Source: Deltaproteobacteria bacterium (GTDB lineage: Bacteria > Myxococcota_A > UBA9160 > UBA4427). Taken from it: 44,149 nucleotides of DNA. Position 1 is the stretch's first letter. Every line of letters starts with the position of its first letter. The stretch spans positions 1 through 44,149 of the forward strand of contig JANNQH010000876.1 of assembly GCA_031400655.1 (NCBI GenBank), written 5' to 3'. Of this stretch, positions 795 to 43,354 are shown in pieces. The notes beneath the pieces were generated by a model, which saw only the letters and a list, made by a program, of their open reading frames with translations, made no database searches and had not been told where the DNA came from. Made by a program: the position numbers and the translations under genes.

Positions 795-887
795 GAGTGG
801 CTCCCCTTCGTTTCGGACGATCGAGCCATGTGCTTGGCCCCGACGGATGATTCCCGGCGGGTGCTTGAAGATGTTCTGGCGTTTCAG
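795..887 (+). repeat. Copy A of a diverged coding relic (EWLPFVSDDRAMCLAPTDDSRRVLEDVLAFQ); possibly the 5' remnant of an IS91-family transposase gene
   Basis: It aligns codon for codon with 6998-7090. Of 31 codons, 18 encode the same residue, and 10 of those 18 differ only at synonymous positions (hand count). Confidence 0.45.
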
Positions 888-1203
888 CTCTGCGTGATGG
901 ACCGAGAGCTGGGCCCCGCTACGACGTAGCGACCGCTCGATTCTTCCGGCCCTTCATTCGCCACCTACTGAGTCGGCGTGAGAATCATTATTAAATGAGG
1001 AAAAGACCTTGTGTTTTCGGATTGATAGGCAGACTATCACCGAGAGTCCCTGTCGCGAGTCCCGCCGGGGCGACTGCTTCGTGGATGGACGAATGTCCCG
1101 ATCATGAGGTCGAGTAGGGCCACCCAGGAGAAGTCCAAGAAATCATTCGAGCGCCGCACGGGAGCTCGGTCCTCTCTTGGGAACTAATGAAAGGACCGAT
1201 GCC

Positions 1204-4200
1204 ATGGGCGATCTGAGCCAGCGTCTCTCGAGATCGAATCCCTATCGATCGACTCGCTGGCTGCGGAGCCTGGGGATCATGGCCTGCGTTGGGCTGCTCT
1301 TCTCCGCAGCGACCGCCGGGGGGCAGGCCGCCCCGAGCGCGGCTCCATCGGGCCCGCAGGCGCGCACGCAAGCCTGGAAGGTGCACGGCGTCAGGAGCAA
1401 CCAGCCCATCTACCGCCGCAGTGGCGAGATCCTCGTCGAGTATGAGAAGGGCGCGAAGCGGGACATCACGCGGGACCCCGGGCTGGCCTCCATGATCCGC
1501 GGCAAGCGGGAAGCTCGCGGCGACATCGAGGCCCTCACGTTCGACGAGGATACGGTCGGGTTCGAGGCGATCCGCGACCAGCTCCTCGCGACGGCCGGAG
1601 TGCGGCGCGTGGAGCCGAACCTCGTCCTCTCGACGGAGCAGGTGCTCGCGAACCCGCGAGCGCACGCCGACTACTCCTCCAAGCAGTGGCACCTCGACCC
1701 CGACAAGCGTGGGCGCGCCGCAAGCCCGCGAGATCGCTCGCAGGTGATGCGGCGCCTCGGCGCGCGCGCTTCGCGTAGTGAGGCCACCCGAATCGGTGTC
1801 ATCGATACCGGCGTCGACTACCACCACATCGAGTTCACGGGGCGCACCCTGCCCGGTGTGAATCTGATCAGCCATCCGTACCCGGGCGAAGACCCCGCGA
1901 GCGAGGGCGACCAGAACGGCCACGGCACGAGCGTGGCCGGCATCATCGCAGCGGCGGACGACGGGGCCGGAGTCCTCGGCATCGACCCGCGCGCCGAGAT
2001 CTGCAGCATCAAGACCTTCAATCGCGATGGCGACGGCTACCTCGAAGACATCATCGCGGGCATCGACTGGGCGATCGCCAACCGGATCCAGCTGATCAAC
2101 CTATCGTTCGGAACCTACGAGTACTCGGCGCTGCTCGAGGAAGCGATCCTCCGCGCCCAGAGCGCGGGCATCCTGCTGGTCGCGGCGGCGGGCAACGACG
2201 CAGCCGATACGGCGATGTTCCCCGCCGCCTTCGACGGCGTGCTCTCGGTCGGCGCCCATGACCAGGGCGGATGGACCAGCCTGTTCTCGAACTGGGGCGC
2301 GAGCGTCGACTTCCATGCGCCCGGCGATCGGCTCCTGACGACCGATCTCTGGCACGACGGGATCAGCCCCTACACCGTGTTCACGGGCACCTCAGCCGCC
2401 GCGGCCTACGCGACCGGTGTCGCTTCCCTGCTCCTCGAGAACGGGGAGTCCGCCGATTCCGCAGCGACCCTGATGCGAGAGAACGTCATCGCGCGTCCGA
2501 ACGACCGTCACGTGCGGCCCTTGCCCGACCTGTGGCTGAACGACCGACTCATCATGGCTCGCCTGCTCGGCGAGCAGTACGCGGAGCCCACGATCGTCTC
2601 CTTCACGACGAATCAAAAGGTCTTCGCGCACGCTGACGACGTCACGGTCCGCTACGAGATCCAGAACACCGGGACGCGTCCCAGCCCAAAGACCCCGGCC
2701 TGGCTCGTGGTGAAGGAGGGAGACGACGCGCGACGCATTGAGCTCGCGCGCATTCCCCGCCTCGCCCCGGGCGAGCACCACGCGGCGAGCCGCGTGATCG
2801 CCGCGTCCCAGCTGCTCGGGCAGACGGGCAGCCCCGGCTCCGGCCCCGACACGATCCCGCATCGGGTCCGGGTCGAGCTCACGCTCGCCGACTTTCCGCT
2901 CGCGACGGCCGCGCCCCGGCAGCTTCTCATCAACGACGATCTGTTGGTGGGCGTCGGCGTTCGCGCGATGTGGGTGAGCCCGCTCGACTTCAACGACGCG
3001 GAGGCCGAGCGGACACTCTACGCCACGGCGGAGAACGCGGGCCGCACTCGCGTCGATGATCTCGTGGCCAGGGTGTACGCCGTGAACGCCGTGCACGAGG
3101 GGGTCGGCCGGGCACCCAAGACCGATCTCGGCACGATCGCGATCGGAAGCCTGATGCCGGGAGAGATCATCGAGCTCCGGCTTCCGCTCACGGGCTTCGA
3201 GCCTCCTCCGAAACTGGTGACCTTCTGGATGGAGATCGAGCACCAGGGCCGGCCGCTGAGTCGTACCCTCCAGGGCTATCGCTACCCCCGAGCCGGCGGC
3301 CGCGCGAAGCCGGAGTACGCCTGGGCGGTCCACCGGGACATCGCGGAGCAGGCCGTCCTGCTACTCGAAGATCAGGGGATCCATCTCCCCGACCTCGCAC
3401 CGGGCTCGCTCTATCGGGGGAGCCCGAGCATCTTCAACACCTGGCCGGAAGAGATCGGGACGGGGCTCCCCTTGGCGGAGTGGACCGATCCGAGTTACTG
3501 GACCGACGCCGAGCTCGCATCGGGTGCAGCCACCTTCGGGTTGCAGAACTTCACGCTGATCGACGGCGCGAATGATGCGGACGGCGTCGACATCGCCTTC
3601 GGCTACACGTACGAGGACAACTTCGACAGCCACTTCTGGATCGTCGACAACTCCGACGACGATGGTCTGGATTCCGGCGGCAACCACCACAGCGCACTCT
3701 CGAAGCTGCGCGCGCTCTTCTACGGGCGGAACCCCGCGAAGGGCGTACCGGCAGACAGCATGCTCGCCTACGGGGCGATCGACCACTACAACGCCGGCTA
3801 CAAGCAGGCCGCCTGGTGGTTCCTCGGCCACGCTGTCCACCTGATCGGAGACCTCTCGGTCCCGAGCCACGTCAACGACGAGAACTACCACGGCTTCTGG
3901 GGCGCGACCTATCACGATTGGATGGACAAGGGAAACAACGACCGCTGGGATTTCAGCGACGCGGCGGCGCAAGGCGGCTTCGTCAATCCCTTCAGCCCCG
4001 CGGCCGCGGGCGACCCGGTCCGCTACCTCGCCTACACGACCGCGCAGATCGGTAACGCCTTCCCTTACGCAGAAACGAACTACGGCAGCCATGACGGCTT
4101 CAAAGGCAACCGAACGGCCGGCGGCGATACGCCGCACTACGACGCGGCGATGCAGGCGCTCTTCGCGACGCTCGCTCCGAGACCGATCGAGGTGTGGCAC

Positions 4201-5970
4201 GTCAACAAGGACGAGGTCGACGACTTCTTCTTCGGATGTGAGCTCGTCGATTTCATTGGATTTGAAGACCCGGCAGATTGCTGGGGCGGCCCTGACGGCC
4301 ACATCGACAAGGACAACACCGACGACGACGACCTCCCCCAGGTGCCTGGCAACCTCGACGGGAATGGCAACGACAGCGACGGCGACCTGACTCGTATTGG
4401 GACGGTCAACTACCCCTATGCGATCCGGGCCGCGGCAGGGCTCATCTACTACTTCGCCGTCCAGACGGGTCAGATCGCCATCACCGTCTCGAATACGAAC
4501 AGCAGTGGTCCGGGTTCGCTGCGCGATGCGATCGCGATCAGCCCGCCCGGCAGTGTGATCGAGTTCGCTGCGAGCCTGTCGGGCGGAACCATCGCGCTCA
4601 GCTCGGGCGACCTCGTGATCGACAAGGATCTGACCATCGACGCGTCGGCGCTTGCGGCCGGCGTGACGCTCGACGGTCTCGGTCTGGACCGGATCTTTAC
4701 GATCGCCCCGGGCGTCACCGTCCGCCTGGTCGGTCTCGACATCCGCGGCGGCTCGCAGACCTCGGGCGGAGGGATCTACAACGACGGCGATCTCTCGCTC
4801 GTCGATTGCAGCTTCGAGAACAACCACGCGAGCAGCTGGGGCGGTGGTCTCTTCAACAACGCAACGGCCACGGTCGAGCGATGCACGTTCTCGGGCAATA
4901 CCTCGGGAAGCGTGGCGGCCGCCCTCTGGAACAACCAGAACGCGACCCTGACCGTGATCAATTCGACGGTATCGGGGAACAACGCCTACTGGAATGGCGG
5001 TGCCCTCTTGAACTACCAGGGCAACGTCTCGCTGATCCACTCGACGATCACGGGCAATACGGCCGGCAATGGCTTCGGCGGCCTGGGCGGCGGCCTCGAC
5101 AACGACGCGGGCACGATCCATCTGGAAAACTCGATCGTGGCGGGCAACAGCGCCTTGCTCGCAGCGAACGTCGCCGACATCAGCAACCGGAATGGGGGCA
5201 CCATCACGTCCGCCGGTAGGAACCTGATCGGCGACAACACGACGGTCGGCGTCCAGTTTCCAGTCGGGCCGCTGGTCGGTACCGCCGCCAGTCCCCGCAA
5301 TCCGCTGCTGGCAGCCCTCGCCAGCAGTGGCGGCCCCACGCTTACGATGTTGCCGCTCCCGAACTCCCCCGCGATCGATGCAGCGCTCGTAACCGGGCTC
5401 AGTCCCACGACGGACCAGCGAGGCGTGTCTCGTCCGAAGGGGCCTGCAGCCGACCTGGGCGCAGTCGAGCTCACGCGCACCCACGTCTATCAGCTCGTCG
5501 GCGTGACGACCGCGGGGGGCGCGCCAGTCAGCGGCGCTTTCACCTTCAACGGCACCACCGGCACAATCGATTGGGTCCGCATCACGACCGCCCCCGATCC
5601 CGCATACAGTCTGCTCGCAGACACCTTCAACGTTTTTGGCGCTCTCTTGGTCTACACACCCGAGCACCAGCTGGTGGCCGGGAGCTCGACAAACACCATC
5701 GTTCTCAACTTCGGCGCCTATCTGGGGATGCAGACGTCCTACGTGCTCACACAGGAGCCCAATCCCGGAGGCCCCTCCTACATCTATGTCGCCCAGTCCA
5801 ACGGCTACGACCGAGTCACTGGATCCGTCGTCGAGTACTTGCCGGAGCCGACTTCGGGTGTGGCCTTTCCCGCCGCGGTGCTGACACTAGTCGGGTTGGC
5901 GCAGGGCGCGTCGCGACGGCGGAGAGCGCGGGCCAAAGAGGCGATCGGGAGCCAGTCGGCGGCGGCGTAA
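1204..5970 (+). CDS. Secreted multidomain protein: S8 subtilase (with I9-like propeptide), Ig/CARDB-like segments, zinc phospholipase C-like domain, parallel beta-helix and PEP-CTERM sorting tail
   Basis: The ATG at 1204 has an AGGA about 8 nt upstream; the ORF track opens the frame at TTG 1177. The signal peptide reads RWLRSLGIMACVGLLFSAATAGGQAAP. S8 catalytic motifs are VIDTGVD, HGTSVAGII and GTSAAAAYATG. PLC-like motifs are AVHRDIAEQAV, DSHFWIVD, FLGHAVHLIGDLSVPSHVND and YHDWMD. Beta-helix repeats follow the pattern GGGIYNDG.../GGGLFNN.../GGALLNY... and end in TDQRGVSRPKGPAADLGAVE. The C-terminus reads LPEPTSGVAFPAAVLTLVGLAQGASRRRRA. Confidence 0.9.
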   Translation: MGDLSQRLSRSNPYRSTRWLRSLGIMACVGLLFSAATAGGQAAPSAAPSGPQARTQAWKVHGVRSNQPIYRRSGEILVEYEKGAKRDITRDPGLASMIRGKREARGDIEALTFDEDTVGFEAIRDQLLATAGVRRVEPNLVLSTEQVLANPRAHADYSSKQWHLDPDKRGRAASPRDRSQVMRRLGARASRSEATRIGVIDTGVDYHHIEFTGRTLPGVNLISHPYPGEDPASEGDQNGHGTSVAGIIAAADDGAGVLGIDPRAEICSIKTFNRDGDGYLEDIIAGIDWAIANRIQLINLSFGTYEYSALLEEAILRAQSAGILLVAAAGNDAADTAMFPAAFDGVLSVGAHDQGGWTSLFSNWGASVDFHAPGDRLLTTDLWHDGISPYTVFTGTSAAAAYATGVASLLLENGESADSAATLMRENVIARPNDRHVRPLPDLWLNDRLIMARLLGEQYAEPTIVSFTTNQKVFAHADDVTVRYEIQNTGTRPSPKTPAWLVVKEGDDARRIELARIPRLAPGEHHAASRVIAASQLLGQTGSPGSGPDTIPHRVRVELTLADFPLATAAPRQLLINDDLLVGVGVRAMWVSPLDFNDAEAERTLYATAENAGRTRVDDLVARVYAVNAVHEGVGRAPKTDLGTIAIGSLMPGEIIELRLPLTGFEPPPKLVTFWMEIEHQGRPLSRTLQGYRYPRAGGRAKPEYAWAVHRDIAEQAVLLLEDQGIHLPDLAPGSLYRGSPSIFNTWPEEIGTGLPLAEWTDPSYWTDAELASGAATFGLQNFTLIDGANDADGVDIAFGYTYEDNFDSHFWIVDNSDDDGLDSGGNHHSALSKLRALFYGRNPAKGVPADSMLAYGAIDHYNAGYKQAAWWFLGHAVHLIGDLSVPSHVNDENYHGFWGATYHDWMDKGNNDRWDFSDAAAQGGFVNPFSPAAAGDPVRYLAYTTAQIGNAFPYAETNYGSHDGFKGNRTAGGDTPHYDAAMQALFATLAPRPIEVWHVNKDEVDDFFFGCELVDFIGFEDPADCWGGPDGHIDKDNTDDDDLPQVPGNLDGNGNDSDGDLTRIGTVNYPYAIRAAAGLIYYFAVQTGQIAITVSNTNSSGPGSLRDAIAISPPGSVIEFAASLSGGTIALSSGDLVIDKDLTIDASALAAGVTLDGLGLDRIFTIAPGVTVRLVGLDIRGGSQTSGGGIYNDGDLSLVDCSFENNHASSWGGGLFNNATATVERCTFSGNTSGSVAAALWNNQNATLTVINSTVSGNNAYWNGGALLNYQGNVSLIHSTITGNTAGNGFGGLGGGLDNDAGTIHLENSIVAGNSALLAANVADISNRNGGTITSAGRNLIGDNTTVGVQFPVGPLVGTAASPRNPLLAALASSGGPTLTMLPLPNSPAIDAALVTGLSPTTDQRGVSRPKGPAADLGAVELTRTHVYQLVGVTTAGGAPVSGAFTFNGTTGTIDWVRITTAPDPAYSLLADTFNVFGALLVYTPEHQLVAGSSTNTIVLNFGAYLGMQTSYVLTQEPNPGGPSYIYVAQSNGYDRVTGSVVEYLPEPTSGVAFPAAVLTLVGLAQGASRRRRARAKEAIGSQSAAA

Positions 5971-6025
5971 GCGGACGCGGTGAGGAGAGATGCCATGCGG
6001 CGTGCGCGGATACGCCGGCTGGTGC

Positions 6026-6361
6026 TCAAGCCTCTCGCGAGCGCGAGTCGCCTTCCTGCACGACGACCTTGTCGCGCTCGATGATCTTGCGGAACCCCGC
6101 ATCCGTCGTGGCCCAATCGACCACATCGACCCGGTAGGGAAGATCGGATTCCGAGAAGGCATCGACGATCGCGGCGTGGGTCGCGAGCGGGAGAGACCGA
6201 TCGGCCACGACGACGAGGTCGAGATCGGAATGTTTCTTCGCGGTGTGGCGGGCGCGGGAGCCGAACGCCCAGACTTCGAAGGCGGGTACGTGTCGACGGA
6301 GGATCTCGCGCACGATCGCCCAGTGCTCCGGCCGGGTCTCGATCGGCGGTCGATCAGACAT
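6026..6361 (-). CDS. Nucleotidyltransferase-domain protein (MNT/MntA-type antitoxin, HI0073-like)
   Basis: Reads MSDRPPIETRPEHWAIVREILRRHVPAFEVWAFGSRARHTAKKHSDLDLVVV, which contains the GSxxR...DLDL minimal nucleotidyltransferase motif. The ATG at 6361-6359 overlaps the upstream gene's stop by 8 nt (ATGTCTGA). Confidence 0.85.
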   Translation of the reverse strand: MSDRPPIETRPEHWAIVREILRRHVPAFEVWAFGSRARHTAKKHSDLDLVVVADRSLPLATHAAIVDAFSESDLPYRVDVVDWATTDAGFRKIIERDKVVVQEGDSRSREA

Positions 6362-6779
6362 GGCGCGCTTCGAGGCGCCGCAGCAGATCGCGGGCATCGA
6401 CGATGAAGCGAAGCGTGCCGTCGTAGACCTGGCGGGCCTTGGTCTGGTCGTAGGTATGCGCGGTGATGTTGCGAAGCAGTCGGTATTCGAACCACGGGTC
6501 CACTTCGGCGATCAGCCCCTTCTCTGCCGCGGCCCGCACGATGTCGCGAAAGCTCGACTCGTCGACCTCTTCCGGACTCGCCGCTTCGGCTTCGAGCTGG
6601 CGACGGATCATCTTGATGCTGATCTCGTAGACGAACTCGAAGTTCTGGATCACGCCGGCGAGGAGGGTATTCCTGACCTTCGCCGACTGGTGATCGAACC
6701 ACGCTGCGTCCCCGACGATTTCGAGGCCGGCTTCGAGCGAGGCAATCGAGTTGCGCAGCGGAGTCAGGTCGAGGGGCAT
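6354..6779 (-). CDS. Nucleotidyltransferase substrate-binding protein, HI0074 family (HEPN/HepT-type toxin)
   Basis: Reads MPLDLTPLRNSIASLEAGLE...NFEFVYEISIKMIRRQLE...YRLLRNITAHTYD. The Rx4H HEPN motif lies at 6456-6473. An alternative start is the ATG at 6797. Confidence 0.85.
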   Translation of the reverse strand: MPLDLTPLRNSIASLEAGLEIVGDAAWFDHQSAKVRNTLLAGVIQNFEFVYEISIKMIRRQLEAEAASPEEVDESSFRDIVRAAAEKGLIAEVDPWFEYRLLRNITAHTYDQTKARQVYDGTLRFIVDARDLLRRLEARHV

Positions 6780-6997
6780 TTTCGATCCGACGGACATGCA
6801 GCGCGACCGGACGTGATCGCCGCACGTCGAGTACACATCAGAAGCCGTCCCGGGACAACTCGATGCCCAGTCGGGCGCGTTTCCGACGGCGGCCCGAGAC
6901 GCACCCGCTTCCGCAACCGAGCGAAGCACGCATCGCGCTCGGAGCGGTCCCAGCGCCTGCGGCCCAGCGAAGCGCGCGTTCGCGCGCGGAGTGGAAG

Positions 6998-7090
6998 GAA
7001 TGGCTCCCCTTCGTGGCCGAATATCGAGCTCTTTGCGTAGCCCCAGGGGAAGAATTTCGACGAGTTCTCGAGGGCGTGGGCGCGATTCGG
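6998..7090 (+). repeat. Copy B of the coding relic (EWLPFVAEYRALCVAPGEEFRRVLEGVGAIR)
   Basis: Homologous to 795-887 (see that entry). Its GTGGCCGAATAT (VAEY) also resembles GTCGCCGAATAC (VAEY) at 7378-7389, near the N-terminus of the IS91-family ORF downstream. Confidence 0.45.
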
Positions 7091-7275
7091 TAATCGGCGT
7101 GACGTCGATCTACCGGCGAAAGACTGCCTCCAATCCCGGGCCAGCGTACGAAGTCTGCCTGGTTCCGCGGTTCATCGTCTGACAACGGCCTGAGGGGCGC
7201 AAACTCGCGACTCGTTCGGCCCACGATTTTGATCGCTCACCCAGTTCGCCGACTGGTCGGAGATGTCGTGGCCGA

Positions 7276-8165
7276 GTGAACCTGGGGCCACGGCATTCCG
7301 ACGGACGATCCTTGCGGCACTGTCATTGTGGGGACTCTGTGTCATCCCGCCGGTCTGGTCCTGGTGGATCCCTGGCCGTCGCCGAATACCTCCGCCACGA
7401 GCCCGAGAAGACGCACCTGCACGAAGTCATTCGCGCGGAGCTCGTCCCATTTCTTGCCCGCGCGAGATTTCATGGCGCTCCTGTCGCTCGGTTCGTTGAG
7501 CGCGAGATCTGCGCCTACCTCGAGTACGGCGTGCTCGCGCATGGATTCATCCGCGTCCATTGCGACGCCTGCAGCCACGATCGTCTCGTGGCGTTCTCGT
7601 GCAAGGGCCGGGGCTTCTGTTCGTCCTGCCGCGGTCGCCGTATGGCCGACACGGCGGCGTATCTCGTCGACCGGGTGCTCCCCGAAGTCCCGATCCGGCA
7701 GTGGGTCCTGACGTTCCCCTATCCACTGCGATACCGATGCGCCTGGAACGCCAAGCTCGCGAGCGCGGTCTTGCGCTGACCCTTCGATCGGTCTTCGCGG
7801 ATCAGCGGCGCCGCGCGCGAGCGCTGTTTGGGATTCGCAAGGGGCAGTGCGGCTCGGTCACGTTCCTCCAACGGTTCGGCTCGGCACTGAACCTGACGCC
7901 GCACTTTCATTCACTCGTCCTCGACGGCGTCTACCGCGGGCCATCGCACAGGCTCGGAGGCTTCGCGGGGCTTCCGCCTCCCGAGATAGAAGACGTAGCC
8001 CGGGTGCTGGCGGAGACGGCCCGCCGCATCCTGCGTGCTCTCGAGCGGGATAGCATCGACGAGGGACATGACACCGTCGCTCGAGCCGATCCGCTGATGG
8101 CGATGACCGGCGCGGCCTCGATACCCCCTCGCATCGCGATGGGTCCCGAACGGACGACTCGTGGC
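7276..8165 (+). pseudogene. IS91-family (Y2 rolling-circle) transposase, frameshifted and 3'-truncated
   Basis: Frame 1 reads EYLRHEPEKTHLHEVI...FVEREICAYLEYGVLAHGFIRVHCDACSHDRLVAFSCKGRGFCSSCRGRRMADTAAYLVDRVLPEVPIRQWVLTFPYPLRY, which includes the zinc-binding N-domain. Homology continues in another frame after about 7760 (GSVTFLQRFGSALNLTPHFHSLVLDGVY...LPPPEIEDVARVLAETARRI) and is lost near 8165. Confidence 0.8.
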
Positions 8166-8169
8166 GAAG

Positions 8170-8680
8170 ACGCAGGGATTGCGTGGGCTCTTCGTGATCG
8201 ATCTCGAGCGCCGCACGTCGCGGCTTGCCGGACTCGCTGCGTCGTCCGACGAATCATGGATGAACCAGATTGCCCGAAGCTCGACCGATTGCGACGAGGG
8301 CTCCCTTTCGGGTTATCGAATCCCGATCCATGATCGTGATTCGTCGTTCATCCGAGCGTTCGATCCGGCGCTCATGAGCGCTGCTGTCCATCCGGTGGAG
8401 CCTCCAGCCCGAGGCTCGAACCTCGATGCGTGCGCCGATTGATGCGCCCGGCCAAGTTGGTCGGGATGTAAAAGCCGGATCATTCTGATCGGGGAGGTGC
8501 TTGCTCGCCGGGCGATCCGGCAGTACCTCGGCCAGCATGGCGACGAATGAAACGACCAGGGCTCGGCGACCGATCGATCCGAGGCGCGTTCAGTGCTCAC
8601 CGAGTGGACGGTCCGATCGAATGTCACTCGAACGGGCCATCCAAAGATTCCTCTCCGTCTCCGACGCGAAGAGGGGCTCT
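8170..8680 (+). pseudogene. DDE integrase-core (rve) transposase fragment: C-terminal half, with stop and frameshift
   Basis: Reads FVIDLERRTSRLAGLAASSDESWMNQIARSSTDCDEGSLSGYRIPIHDRDSSFIRAF...PPARGSNLDACAD, then a stop, then ILIGEVLARRAIRQYLGQHGDE in another frame. This matches the usual ...PRSPNLNAYAERF...ILIGERHLRR...HYH... layout. Confidence 0.6.
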
Positions 8681-43278: not shown

Positions 43279-43354
43279 TGGCTCCCCGGGCAGGACTCGA
43301 ACCTGCGACAAGGCGGTTAACAGCCGCCTGCTCTACCAGCTGAGCTACCGGGGA
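43279..43354 (-). tRNA. tRNA-Asn (anticodon GTT), 76 nt with encoded CCA
   Basis: The reverse strand reads TCCCCGGTAGCTCAGCTGGTAGAGCAGGCGGCTGTTAACCGCCTTGTCGCAGGTTCGAGTCCTGCCCGGGGAGCCA. It has a 7-bp acceptor stem, anticodon stem-loop GGCGG-CTGTTAA-CCGCC and a GGTTCGAGTCC T-arm. Confidence 0.95.

Follow-up and report, generated by a model that had tools for sequence, protein, structure and literature searches.

The stretch of DNA analysed here (the window: 44,149 nucleotides, contig JANNQH010000876.1 of assembly GCA_031400655.1, from a Deltaproteobacteria bacterium) carries a long gene that joins a subtilisin-like (S8) protease to a domain resembling zinc phospholipase C (PLC). A K+ channel gene lies upstream of this protease–PLC-like gene, a toxin-antitoxin pair lies downstream, followed by debris of an IS91 element, and a tRNA-Asn gene stands near the far end of the window. 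The coordinates of the gene, the parts of its product and its neighbours are collected in Table 1. The gene encodes one real secreted multi-domain protein, whose two enzyme domains belong together throughout a family of proteins described below.

A Shine-Dalgarno-like AAGGA at about 1190-1194 lies 8 nt 5' of the ATG, and the GC content at third codon positions (GC3) of this frame stays within 0.79-0.92 throughout, measured in blocks of 300 nt as far as the stop codon. The genome is 66% GC, long spurious open reading frames (ORFs) are frequent in it, and an antisense ORF of 768 codons overlaps the gene; the overlapping frames encode Arg-rich junk, and the true frame was identified because homologues of the 1588-amino acid product exist. 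Scans for a promoter and a terminator around the gene gave nothing informative. The first-pass annotation of this DNA had proposed a single uninterrupted ORF encoding one polypeptide, with a signal peptide, propeptide, protease, beta-sandwiches, PLC-like domain, beta-helix and sorting signal in that order. Both the single polypeptide and the order of its domains held up, the former on the evidence of the frame, the GC3 and homologues that have the same junctions.

Table 1. Features of the protease–PLC-like gene, its predicted product and its surroundings (positions in the window)
Feature	Position	Strand	Remarks
Left island end, copy 1 of 93-nt repeat	795..887	+	starts with 9-nt core TGGCTCCCC at 798-806
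Complete protease–PLC-like gene	1204..5970	+	1588 amino acids; stop codon 5968-5970; no internal stop
Putative Sec-type signal peptide	1204..1329	+	residues 1 to ~38-42; Arg-rich n-region, hydrophobic LGIMACVGLLFSAATA, then ATA/GQA; cleavage site predicted
Propeptide-like alpha/beta unit	1375..1632	+	residues 58-143
Peptidase S8 catalytic domain	1771..2571	+	residues 190-456
Two predicted Ig-like beta-sandwich domains	2587..3282	+	residues 462-561 (CARDB-like) and 572-693
Putative divergent Zn-PLC / S1-P1-nuclease superfamily domain	3316..4473	+	residues 705-1090; from homologue profile and fold search
Repeat module	4474..5472	+	residues 1091-1423; GSLRDAI start, PMP-type GGG..N repeats
Choice-of-anchor-Q domain	5299..5472	+	residues 1366-1423, end of repeat module; NF041518
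Orphan domain, ~120 amino acids	5473..5832	+	residues 1424-1543; no detectable homologue
PEP-CTERM-like tail	5839..5931	+	residues 1546-1576; LPEP 1546-1549, RRRRAR 1571-1576, 12 residues before stop
MNT nucleotidyltransferase	6026..6397	-	toxin-antitoxin pair with HepT; same island module as protease
HepT/NTase_sub_bind	6354..6929	-	toxin-antitoxin pair with MNT; same island module as protease
Copy 2 of 93-nt island-end repeat	6998..7090	+	TGGCTCCCC at 7001-7009; bounds module 1
tRNA-Asn(GTT)	43279..43354	-	3' end TGGCTCCCC (43279-43287) is the attachment core

The amino-terminal half of the protein reads as an exported subtilase. In an AlphaFold2 model of residues 1-709 (predicted local distance difference test, pLDDT, 79; predicted template modelling score, pTM, 0.81) the putative signal peptide forms a hydrophobic helix at residues 16-32, and similar signal peptides start the homologues, in agreement with the first reading. 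Behind it the model places a strand (58-64) and then a beta-alpha-beta-beta-alpha-beta unit (67-143), at pLDDT 70-92. When the whole 1-709 model was compared with the PDB by Foldseek, pro-forms of subtilisins were aligned with the propeptide included (pro-subtilisin E, 3whi, over 402 columns; pro-Tk-subtilisin, 2e1p, over 431 columns), and they aligned over more columns than mature structures did. The Pfam I9 model (PF05922) gave no match to residues 1-187 even at E <= 10, so that the propeptide named at first as I9-like appears to be so by its modelled fold and not by its profile.

The catalytic domain matched PF00082 at residues 194-416 (E 2.6e-42; 145.6 bits against a gathering score of 21.8), and the model aligned to subtilisins of the PDB at E 1e-20 to 1e-23, with template modelling (TM) scores normalised to the target of up to 0.85. 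The triad residues D201, H240 and S397 and the oxyanion residue N331 were invariant in an alignment of 14 family members, the window protein and 13 relatives. The complete S8 triad read earlier from short motifs is thereby confirmed, and the protease is predicted to be catalytically intact. The two beta-sandwich-like segments also reappeared in the model; CARDB (PF07705) scored 22.2 bits on the isolated piece, below its cut-off of 22.7. Fervidolysin (1r6v), which is likewise built of a propeptide, a catalytic domain and two sandwiches, aligned over 733 columns.

The middle domain had been assigned to the PLC/P1-nuclease superfamily from zinc-ligand motifs, and this assignment was borne out by a homologue profile and a fold search and not by Pfam or NCBIfam. 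A database search with residues 700-1100 returned 34 proteins, nearly all 1030-1100 residues long and annotated with PF00082 only. A profile of 24 homologous PLC-like domains (profile A1) was built from the homologues and compared with the PDB, where it matched zinc phospholipases C only: Listeria PlcB (8cqm) at E 2.1e-5 and Bacillus cereus PC-PLC at E 0.008-0.014 (1ah7 at 0.013). In this alignment H879-x3-D883-x5-H889 falls on the PLC ligands H118, D122 and H128, all three being invariant in the family. A profile of the N-terminal half found B. cereus PLC only, weakly (E 2.7-5.8), with D793 on D55 and H810 on H69, and H710 was matched to PLC H14 by order alone; H710, D793, H810 and H896 are likewise invariant. 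PLC E146 aligns to H904, a position that is H or E across the family, and PLC H142 aligns to the invariant G900, with the invariant H896 one helical turn earlier. The candidate metal ligands are H710, D793, H810, H879, D883, H889, H896 and H904 (D908).

A separate AlphaFold2 model of the PLC-like domain (pLDDT 85, pTM 0.90) was compared with the PDB by Foldseek, and the top 17 matches were Zn-PLCs (the clostridial alpha-toxin N-domain, PC-PLC and PlcB), the first 10 of them with a probability of 0.98-1.00. The acidic Asp/Asn/Gly-rich stretch, which had been taken for a linker, is no linker: it lies within the domain as a conserved DxDNTD...DGD loop (about 1034-1064), followed by a terminal helix (1061-1087, pLDDT 97-99) that also belongs to the domain, and only a lineage-specific insert at 1042-1053 is low-confidence or disordered in the model. 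Fold and profile evidence favour a PLC-type enzyme, and residues 705-1090 are probably a metal-dependent phosphoesterase domain representing a divergent, unannotated family of the Zn-PLC/S1-P1 superfamily.

An exhaustive profile search for this domain was made of 1.84 billion representative proteins, with matches counted as clusters at 50% identity. The domain was found in 948 clusters at E <= 1e-3 and in 37 at E <= 1e-30. About 35 clusters form a strong group in which it lies at residues ~650-1100, behind an S8 protease, while in the remaining clusters it stands at the very N-terminus of proteins of 300-1300 residues. The S8-fused forms come from metagenome-assembled genomes of Acidobacteriota, a gammaproteobacterium and Fibrobacterota; the free-standing forms occur in Ignavibacteriota, Bacteroidota and Cloacimonadota, where they often end in a type-IX secretion tail. 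The two sets are homologous (hhalign probability 100%, E 6.7e-48), and a free-standing relative matched PF00882 at E 1.1e-4 and 22.6 bits, below the cut-off of 26.8. A His (typically ...A-H), followed by x-Q-x-x-H-Q, comes directly after the signal peptide in 13 of 14 free-standing proteins, and this first His aligns to Y705, a position occupied by Y, F or H in the fused forms. Since the domain begins directly after the signal peptide, the mature free-standing protein would start with His. The same H-x-Q-x-x-H-Q start right after the signal peptide can be seen across the free-standing loci L026-L066, for example at L029:5293-6780. A profile of free-standing relatives from the Fibrobacterota-Chlorobiota-Bacteroidota (FCB) group, also compared with the PDB, returned no PLC and only chance dynein matches, and was discarded.

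Within the fused group, members vary after the PLC-like domain. Modules at the corresponding place in P0003, P0005, P0006, P0008, P0009, P0011 and P0012 share 44-48% identity with the beta-helix module of the window protein. P0003 continues from PLC-like domain and beta-helix into another domain and a VPEP-CTERM end, and P0004 consists of S8, PLC-like domain, the extra domain of P0003 and VPEP-CTERM; most other members end right after the PLC-like domain and have no beta-helix. Because of this pattern we regard S8, sandwiches and PLC-like domain as the core and the C-terminal parts as exchangeable: protease and phosphoesterase form an invariant family core, and the C-terminal modules have been swapped between lineages. 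The architecture had been described at first as one that could not be recognised. It is not unique, since the core is that of the whole fusion family, the beta-helix is present in at least seven other representatives and two close relatives have a VPEP-CTERM end. The fusion family is nonetheless rare and uncharacterised, and a literature search for the S8, PLC-like and beta-helix architecture found nothing relevant.

Several further observations were made on how members of the family end or are divided. The C-termini of P0007, P0010, P0013, P0016, P0018, P0020 and P0022 carry a short conserved motif, (L/I)P(A)xxxx(L/I)LL(D/N/Q)-COOH, which also ends P0023, P0025, P0026, P0033, P0048, P0058 and P0078. 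Its bearers span different phyla, it is present also after extra TIG domains, and it may serve in sorting or secretion as a C-terminal signal not yet described; the window protein has its beta-helix and PEP-type tail in place of it. In the Cloacimonadota protein L037 a PF13229 beta-helix follows the PLC-like domain, so that the pairing of the two arose more than once. At an Acidobacteriota locus (L074, 5673-6986 and 7001-10975) the S8 part and the rest were called as two adjacent genes 14 nt apart; either a frameshift or assembly error separates them, or the fusion is naturally split there.

The C-terminal third of the window protein begins with the repeat module, which gave weak matches to Chlam_PMP and Fil_haemagg (E 0.057) and would, judging from its repeats, form a beta-helical stalk. 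Its end matches choice-of-anchor Q (NF041518) at 70.7 bits against a cut-off of 25, over TDQRG..RP..DLGAVE. A beta-helix of about 330 amino acids ending in this motif had been claimed; the ending is well supported by the profile, and the beta-helix fold itself is suggested by the repeats and the weak matches. Residues 1420-1588 were searched both as a small protein and inside long proteins, and only the choice-of-anchor-Q motif was matched; the orphan domain that lies behind this motif has no paralogue in its own genome.

The tail reads LPEP-TSGVAFPAAVLTLVGLAQGAS-RRRRAR, with 21 mostly hydrophobic residues between PEP and the Arg cluster. A PEP motif, a hydrophobic helix and a basic cluster near the C-terminus define PEP-CTERM (PMC1569441), and the window tail has this tripartite layout in a protein that starts with a signal peptide. 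The search of the genome for an exosortase proposed in the first-pass annotation was successful: the host genome has four exosortase genes above the Pfam cut-off, two of them above TIGR02602, and at least 48 PEP-CTERM matches above the TIGR02595 cut-off. Canonical VPEP-CTERM ends are found in P0003 and P0004, the closest relatives of the window protein. The host genome also encodes, on contig C478 (about 6403-6660, + strand), a protein whose choice-of-anchor-Q motif (..CDIGAVE) leads directly into a canonical VPEP-CTERM tail, which is the usual wiring of choice-of-anchor Q to the exosortase signal in this genome.

The gene itself is accessory and lies in the first module of a 42.5-kb insertion at tRNA-Asn. 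In a sister genome (G023), whose flanks are 95-98% identical to the window, the K+ channel flank (as far as 806) is joined directly to the tRNA-Asn end. The junction reads ...GAATCCAAA-TGGCTCCCC-GGGCAGGACTCGAACC (L068, G023:C173; core at 3547-3555), and no match to window 807-7300 was found in G023. Because G023 shows the empty site, window 807-43278 (42,472 bp) is taken as an insertion at the 3' end of the tRNA-Asn gene. The copies of the 93-nt direct repeat at the island end, 31 codons long, are 58% identical (tblastx E 2.6e-9) and are visible only by translated comparison; a nucleotide repeat finder reported no flanking repeats. Since the island end is repeated, 795-6997, with the protease gene and the toxin-antitoxin pair, forms a separate module (module 1), an arrangement that suggests tandem accretion of two modules. 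No integrase was found next to the tRNA-Asn gene or anywhere in the 44-kb window, and as none is left and the repeats have diverged, the island is old and decaying.

The distribution of the gene is correspondingly patchy. The protease gene and toxin-antitoxin pair were not found in 46 related genomes, nor was the PLC-like domain in 24 congeneric and 16 same-order genomes. A short contig of the host genome (C491, 1501 bp; the parts concerned are 264-881 and 1211-1414) holds a second haplotype of the locus: a K+ channel gene 96.6% identical to that of the window is followed by a degraded remnant of the tail and then by a third copy of the island-end repeat, and the protease gene and toxin-antitoxin pair are missing. 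The tail remnant, VELEP...RRRRAR, has LEP for PEP, the same spacing, and 74% nucleotide identity to window 5841-5930. This contig implies strain-level presence and absence of the gene or mixed strains in the bin. The gene had been placed in a cassette flanked by mobile elements. That the DNA is acquired proved correct, and the cassette can now be described more exactly as a module of a tRNA-Asn island.

The adjoining toxin-antitoxin pair, also predicted at first, is of MNT/HepT-like type. Conserved neighbours were looked for at the loci of homologues and none was common to them. A ParD/ParE pair lies immediately downstream of the Acidobacteriota homologue P0008 (L070-L072, 12363-12951), so that different addiction modules adjoin the same gene family, MNT/HepT in the window and ParDE at P0008. 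Of the IS91-like remnant at window 7343-8187 the sister genome G023 has at least eight copies at 77-80% identity, from which we conclude that this family is or was active in the genus. On a contig of a near-identical strain (L014, from GCA_031394605.1) an insertion sequence (IS) of rve type, about 1.2 kb long (3519-4740, corresponding to window 653), lies between the K+ channel and the protease gene.

Taken together, these data make it probable that the gene product is a Sec-exported multi-domain hydrolase that is extracellular or bound to the cell surface; the protease triad and the candidate metal ligands are conserved across the family. After export the propeptide would be removed autocatalytically, as in other subtilases, and the protein would stay anchored in the inner membrane by its tail until it is set free, by an exosortase or some other processing step, to reach the surface or matrix. 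In that location the two enzymes, protease and phosphoesterase, may degrade polymers or membranes, either for the acquisition of nutrients and phosphate or in attack on other cells. Enzymes of the PLC/P1 superfamily complete their metal site with residue 1 of the mature chain, and the known PLCs, synthesised as precursors, need to have their N-terminus freed. Y705 stands at the position of PLC Trp1 and is internal, becoming free only after proteolysis. It is tempting to speculate, as a tentative idea, that the phosphoesterase's need for a free N-terminal residue at its metal site lies behind the fusion to an upstream protease. In the free-standing relatives signal peptidase would expose the His at the Y705 position; in the fusion this task would fall to the S8 domain, which would activate the second enzyme by cleaving the short flexible linker ahead of Y705 (both models give residues 695-705 low confidence). 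The fusion would then be a self-activating two-enzyme polyprotein, in which an internal domain became dependent on the attached subtilase cutting before Tyr705, and it might mirror the activation of PLC precursors by N-terminal processing. Such self-activation would explain why S8 is strictly upstream in about 35 clusters of three phyla while the C-terminal modules are exchangeable.

Some observations weigh against a phospholipase at residues 705-1090. Searches of Pfam, NCBIfam and, with the single sequence, the PDB gave no match to this segment, both PF00882 and PF02265 missing it. The Foldseek E-values are only about 1e-2, and the TM scores normalised to the target are 0.5-0.6 (best 0.61), both owing to large insertions in the domain. 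Since the equivalent of H142 is unaligned and that of W1 is internal, the metal site may differ from that of PLC. P1 nuclease has the spacing W1..H6 and PLC the spacing W1..H14, and the five residues from Y705 to H710 are nearer to the former, as are the H1..H6 of the free-standing forms, where a His takes the place of the aromatic residue. The domain might accordingly be an S1/P1-type nuclease, a nucleotidase or another phosphoesterase, with the protein digesting extracellular protein and nucleic acid (extracellular DNA of a matrix, for phosphate scavenging) and not membranes; H904-x3-D908 resembles the H-x3-D ligand pair, and S1, P1, TBN1 and SmNuc1 rank next after the PLCs in the fold search. 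We find this less likely, because those nuclease matches have E-values of 4-8 and probabilities <0.1, against about 1e-2 and a best probability of about 1 for PLCs, PF02265 has no match in the window protein, both sequence profiles match only PLCs in the PDB, and the sole Pfam bridge leads to PF00882. That the long ORF arose in assembly, by a chimeric joining of two genes or of two strains, seems very improbable. The metagenome-assembled genome is fragmented (969 contigs) and has a second haplotype of the locus on C491, the last 165 residues have no homologue, and the L014 contig is 97.7% identical to the window up to the boundary of PLC-like domain and beta-helix, falls from ~98% to ~70% exactly there (L014 8530-8794 against window 4446-4640), and then diverges just ahead of a stop codon and the contig end. 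This drop could be a recombination breakpoint or an assembly end, and the pattern at the boundary looks like module swapping or truncation. The S8-sandwich-PLC-beta-helix junctions recur, however, in at least seven other cluster representatives from independent assemblies, P0003 has its PLC-like domain, beta-helix, extra domain and PEP-CTERM in the same order, the coding signal in GC3 is uniform as far as the stop codon, and C491 retains a diverged remnant of the same tail at the same locus.

The tail fails the profile tests for PEP-CTERM, an outcome that the first-pass annotation had listed as refuting, and for this reason we call its sorting by exosortase only plausible. TIGR02595 scored 8.9 bits on the isolated tail, below the cut-off of 16; the tail was missing from the genome-wide PEP-CTERM matches even at E <= 10; an attempt to rescue it with a genome-specific model, built from 48 tails of its own genome, failed at 3.3 bits, where the P0004 tail scored 26.3 bits; and the 21 residues from PEP to Arg compare with 14-19 (mode 17) in nearly all canonical tails of the genome. 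The best weak match of the isolated tail was to MYXO-CTERM (15.4 bits, cut-off 20), an identity contradicted by the lack of a Cys. The tail may then serve simply as a membrane anchor at the C-terminus, or it may address a different or unknown sorting enzyme, leaving the enzyme tethered to the inner membrane and facing the periplasm or released by its own protease. We give this the lesser likelihood, though an appreciable one, since the tail has all three defining elements in the right order near the C-terminus (PMC1569441), the genome is rich in exosortases and their substrates, the nearest homologues have canonical tails at the same place, and choice-of-anchor domains by definition precede sorting signals. 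Of the PEP-CTERM signal first proposed, the LPEP, helix and RRRR layout thus stands and the profile support does not. The suggestion of a contact-dependent factor, in which the protein would be an antagonistic effector or adhesin with a beta-helical stalk displaying toxic protease and lipase heads to neighbours, has fared worse and appears improbable. The weak Fil_haemagg and Chlam_PMP matches, the membrane-damaging toxins among Zn-PLC relatives and the position on an accessory island are in its favour. Most family members have no beta-helix, however; genes for two-partner secretion or another delivery route are lacking next to it, as are immunity-like genes, and the homologue loci have no conserved partner gene; the adjacent MNT/HepT pair is an addiction module, and a homologue is followed by a different pair (ParDE), an arrangement in keeping with island maintenance rather than immunity.

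The PLC-like family numbers about 950 clusters (at 50% identity), every one of them from bacteria that are uncultured or have hardly been studied, and current hidden Markov model (HMM) libraries miss it; its proteins appear in databases only as 'S8 family serine peptidase', 'hypothetical protein' or 'cysteine-rich repeat protein', and it can now be tied to the zinc phospholipase-C / P1-nuclease superfamily. The constancy with which an intact subtilase accompanies the fused domain suggests a way for a metal enzyme needing a free N-terminus to work internally. In ecological terms these proteins would be secreted dual hydrolases of Acidobacteriota, Fibrobacterota and their relatives, with protein as one substrate and phospholipid or nucleic acid as the other. 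The locus also illustrates modular evolution clearly, with stalk and anchor modules swapped between strains and the gene moving on a tRNA-Asn island.

Each part of the locus can be compared with a known system. Fervidolysin and the pro-subtilisins share with the window protein a predicted N-terminal propeptide and the Asp-His-Ser catalytic domain, and there is a fold match to subtilisins at TM 0.8-0.85 normalised to the target and a PF00082 score far above the cut-off; two C-terminal beta-sandwiches complete the likeness. The window protein differs from this family in a propeptide that the I9 HMM misses and in nearly 900 further residues that would make up a second catalytic domain, a stalk and an anchor. 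With the Zn-PLCs (1ah7, PlcB 8cqm, alpha-toxin N-domain 1ca1; PF00882) and the S1/P1 nucleases the middle domain shares an all-helical predicted fold, and with the former the aligned H-x3-D-x5-H ligand block; the SHF(W/Y)..D block, together with the Asp ahead of it, aligns more weakly. It differs from the Zn-PLCs in length (about 390 residues against about 245), in its large insertions and in the added DxDNTD...DGD loop; it has no curated-HMM match, its Trp1 position is an internal Tyr, its H142 equivalent is displaced (H896), and it is fused behind a protease. The choice-of-anchor Q and PMP-type beta-helix proteins (NF041518, PF02415) have in common with the window protein the DQRG..RP..D(L/I)GA(V)E motif, the GGG..N repeats and a domain just ahead of the C-terminal sorting region, but in the window protein the orphan domain of about 120 residues is inserted between motif and anchor. 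The likeness to the PEP-CTERM/exosortase system (Haft 2006, PMC1569441; TIGR02595) lies in the PEP, hydrophobic helix and Arg cluster and in a genome with four exosortases and dozens of substrates, the differences in a tail below curated and genome-specific thresholds, a 21-residue gap and 12 residues beyond the cluster. As in other tRNA-integrated islands with tandem accretion, there are insertion at a tRNA 3' end, a short direct repeat of that end, an empty site in a relative, a repeated island-end sequence, a toxin-antitoxin module and IS debris; the window departs from them in its diverged repeats and in having no integrase within its 44 kb. Seen beside these systems, the protein is not a new kind of system: its superfamily is known, the family within it is new, and the architecture is rare.

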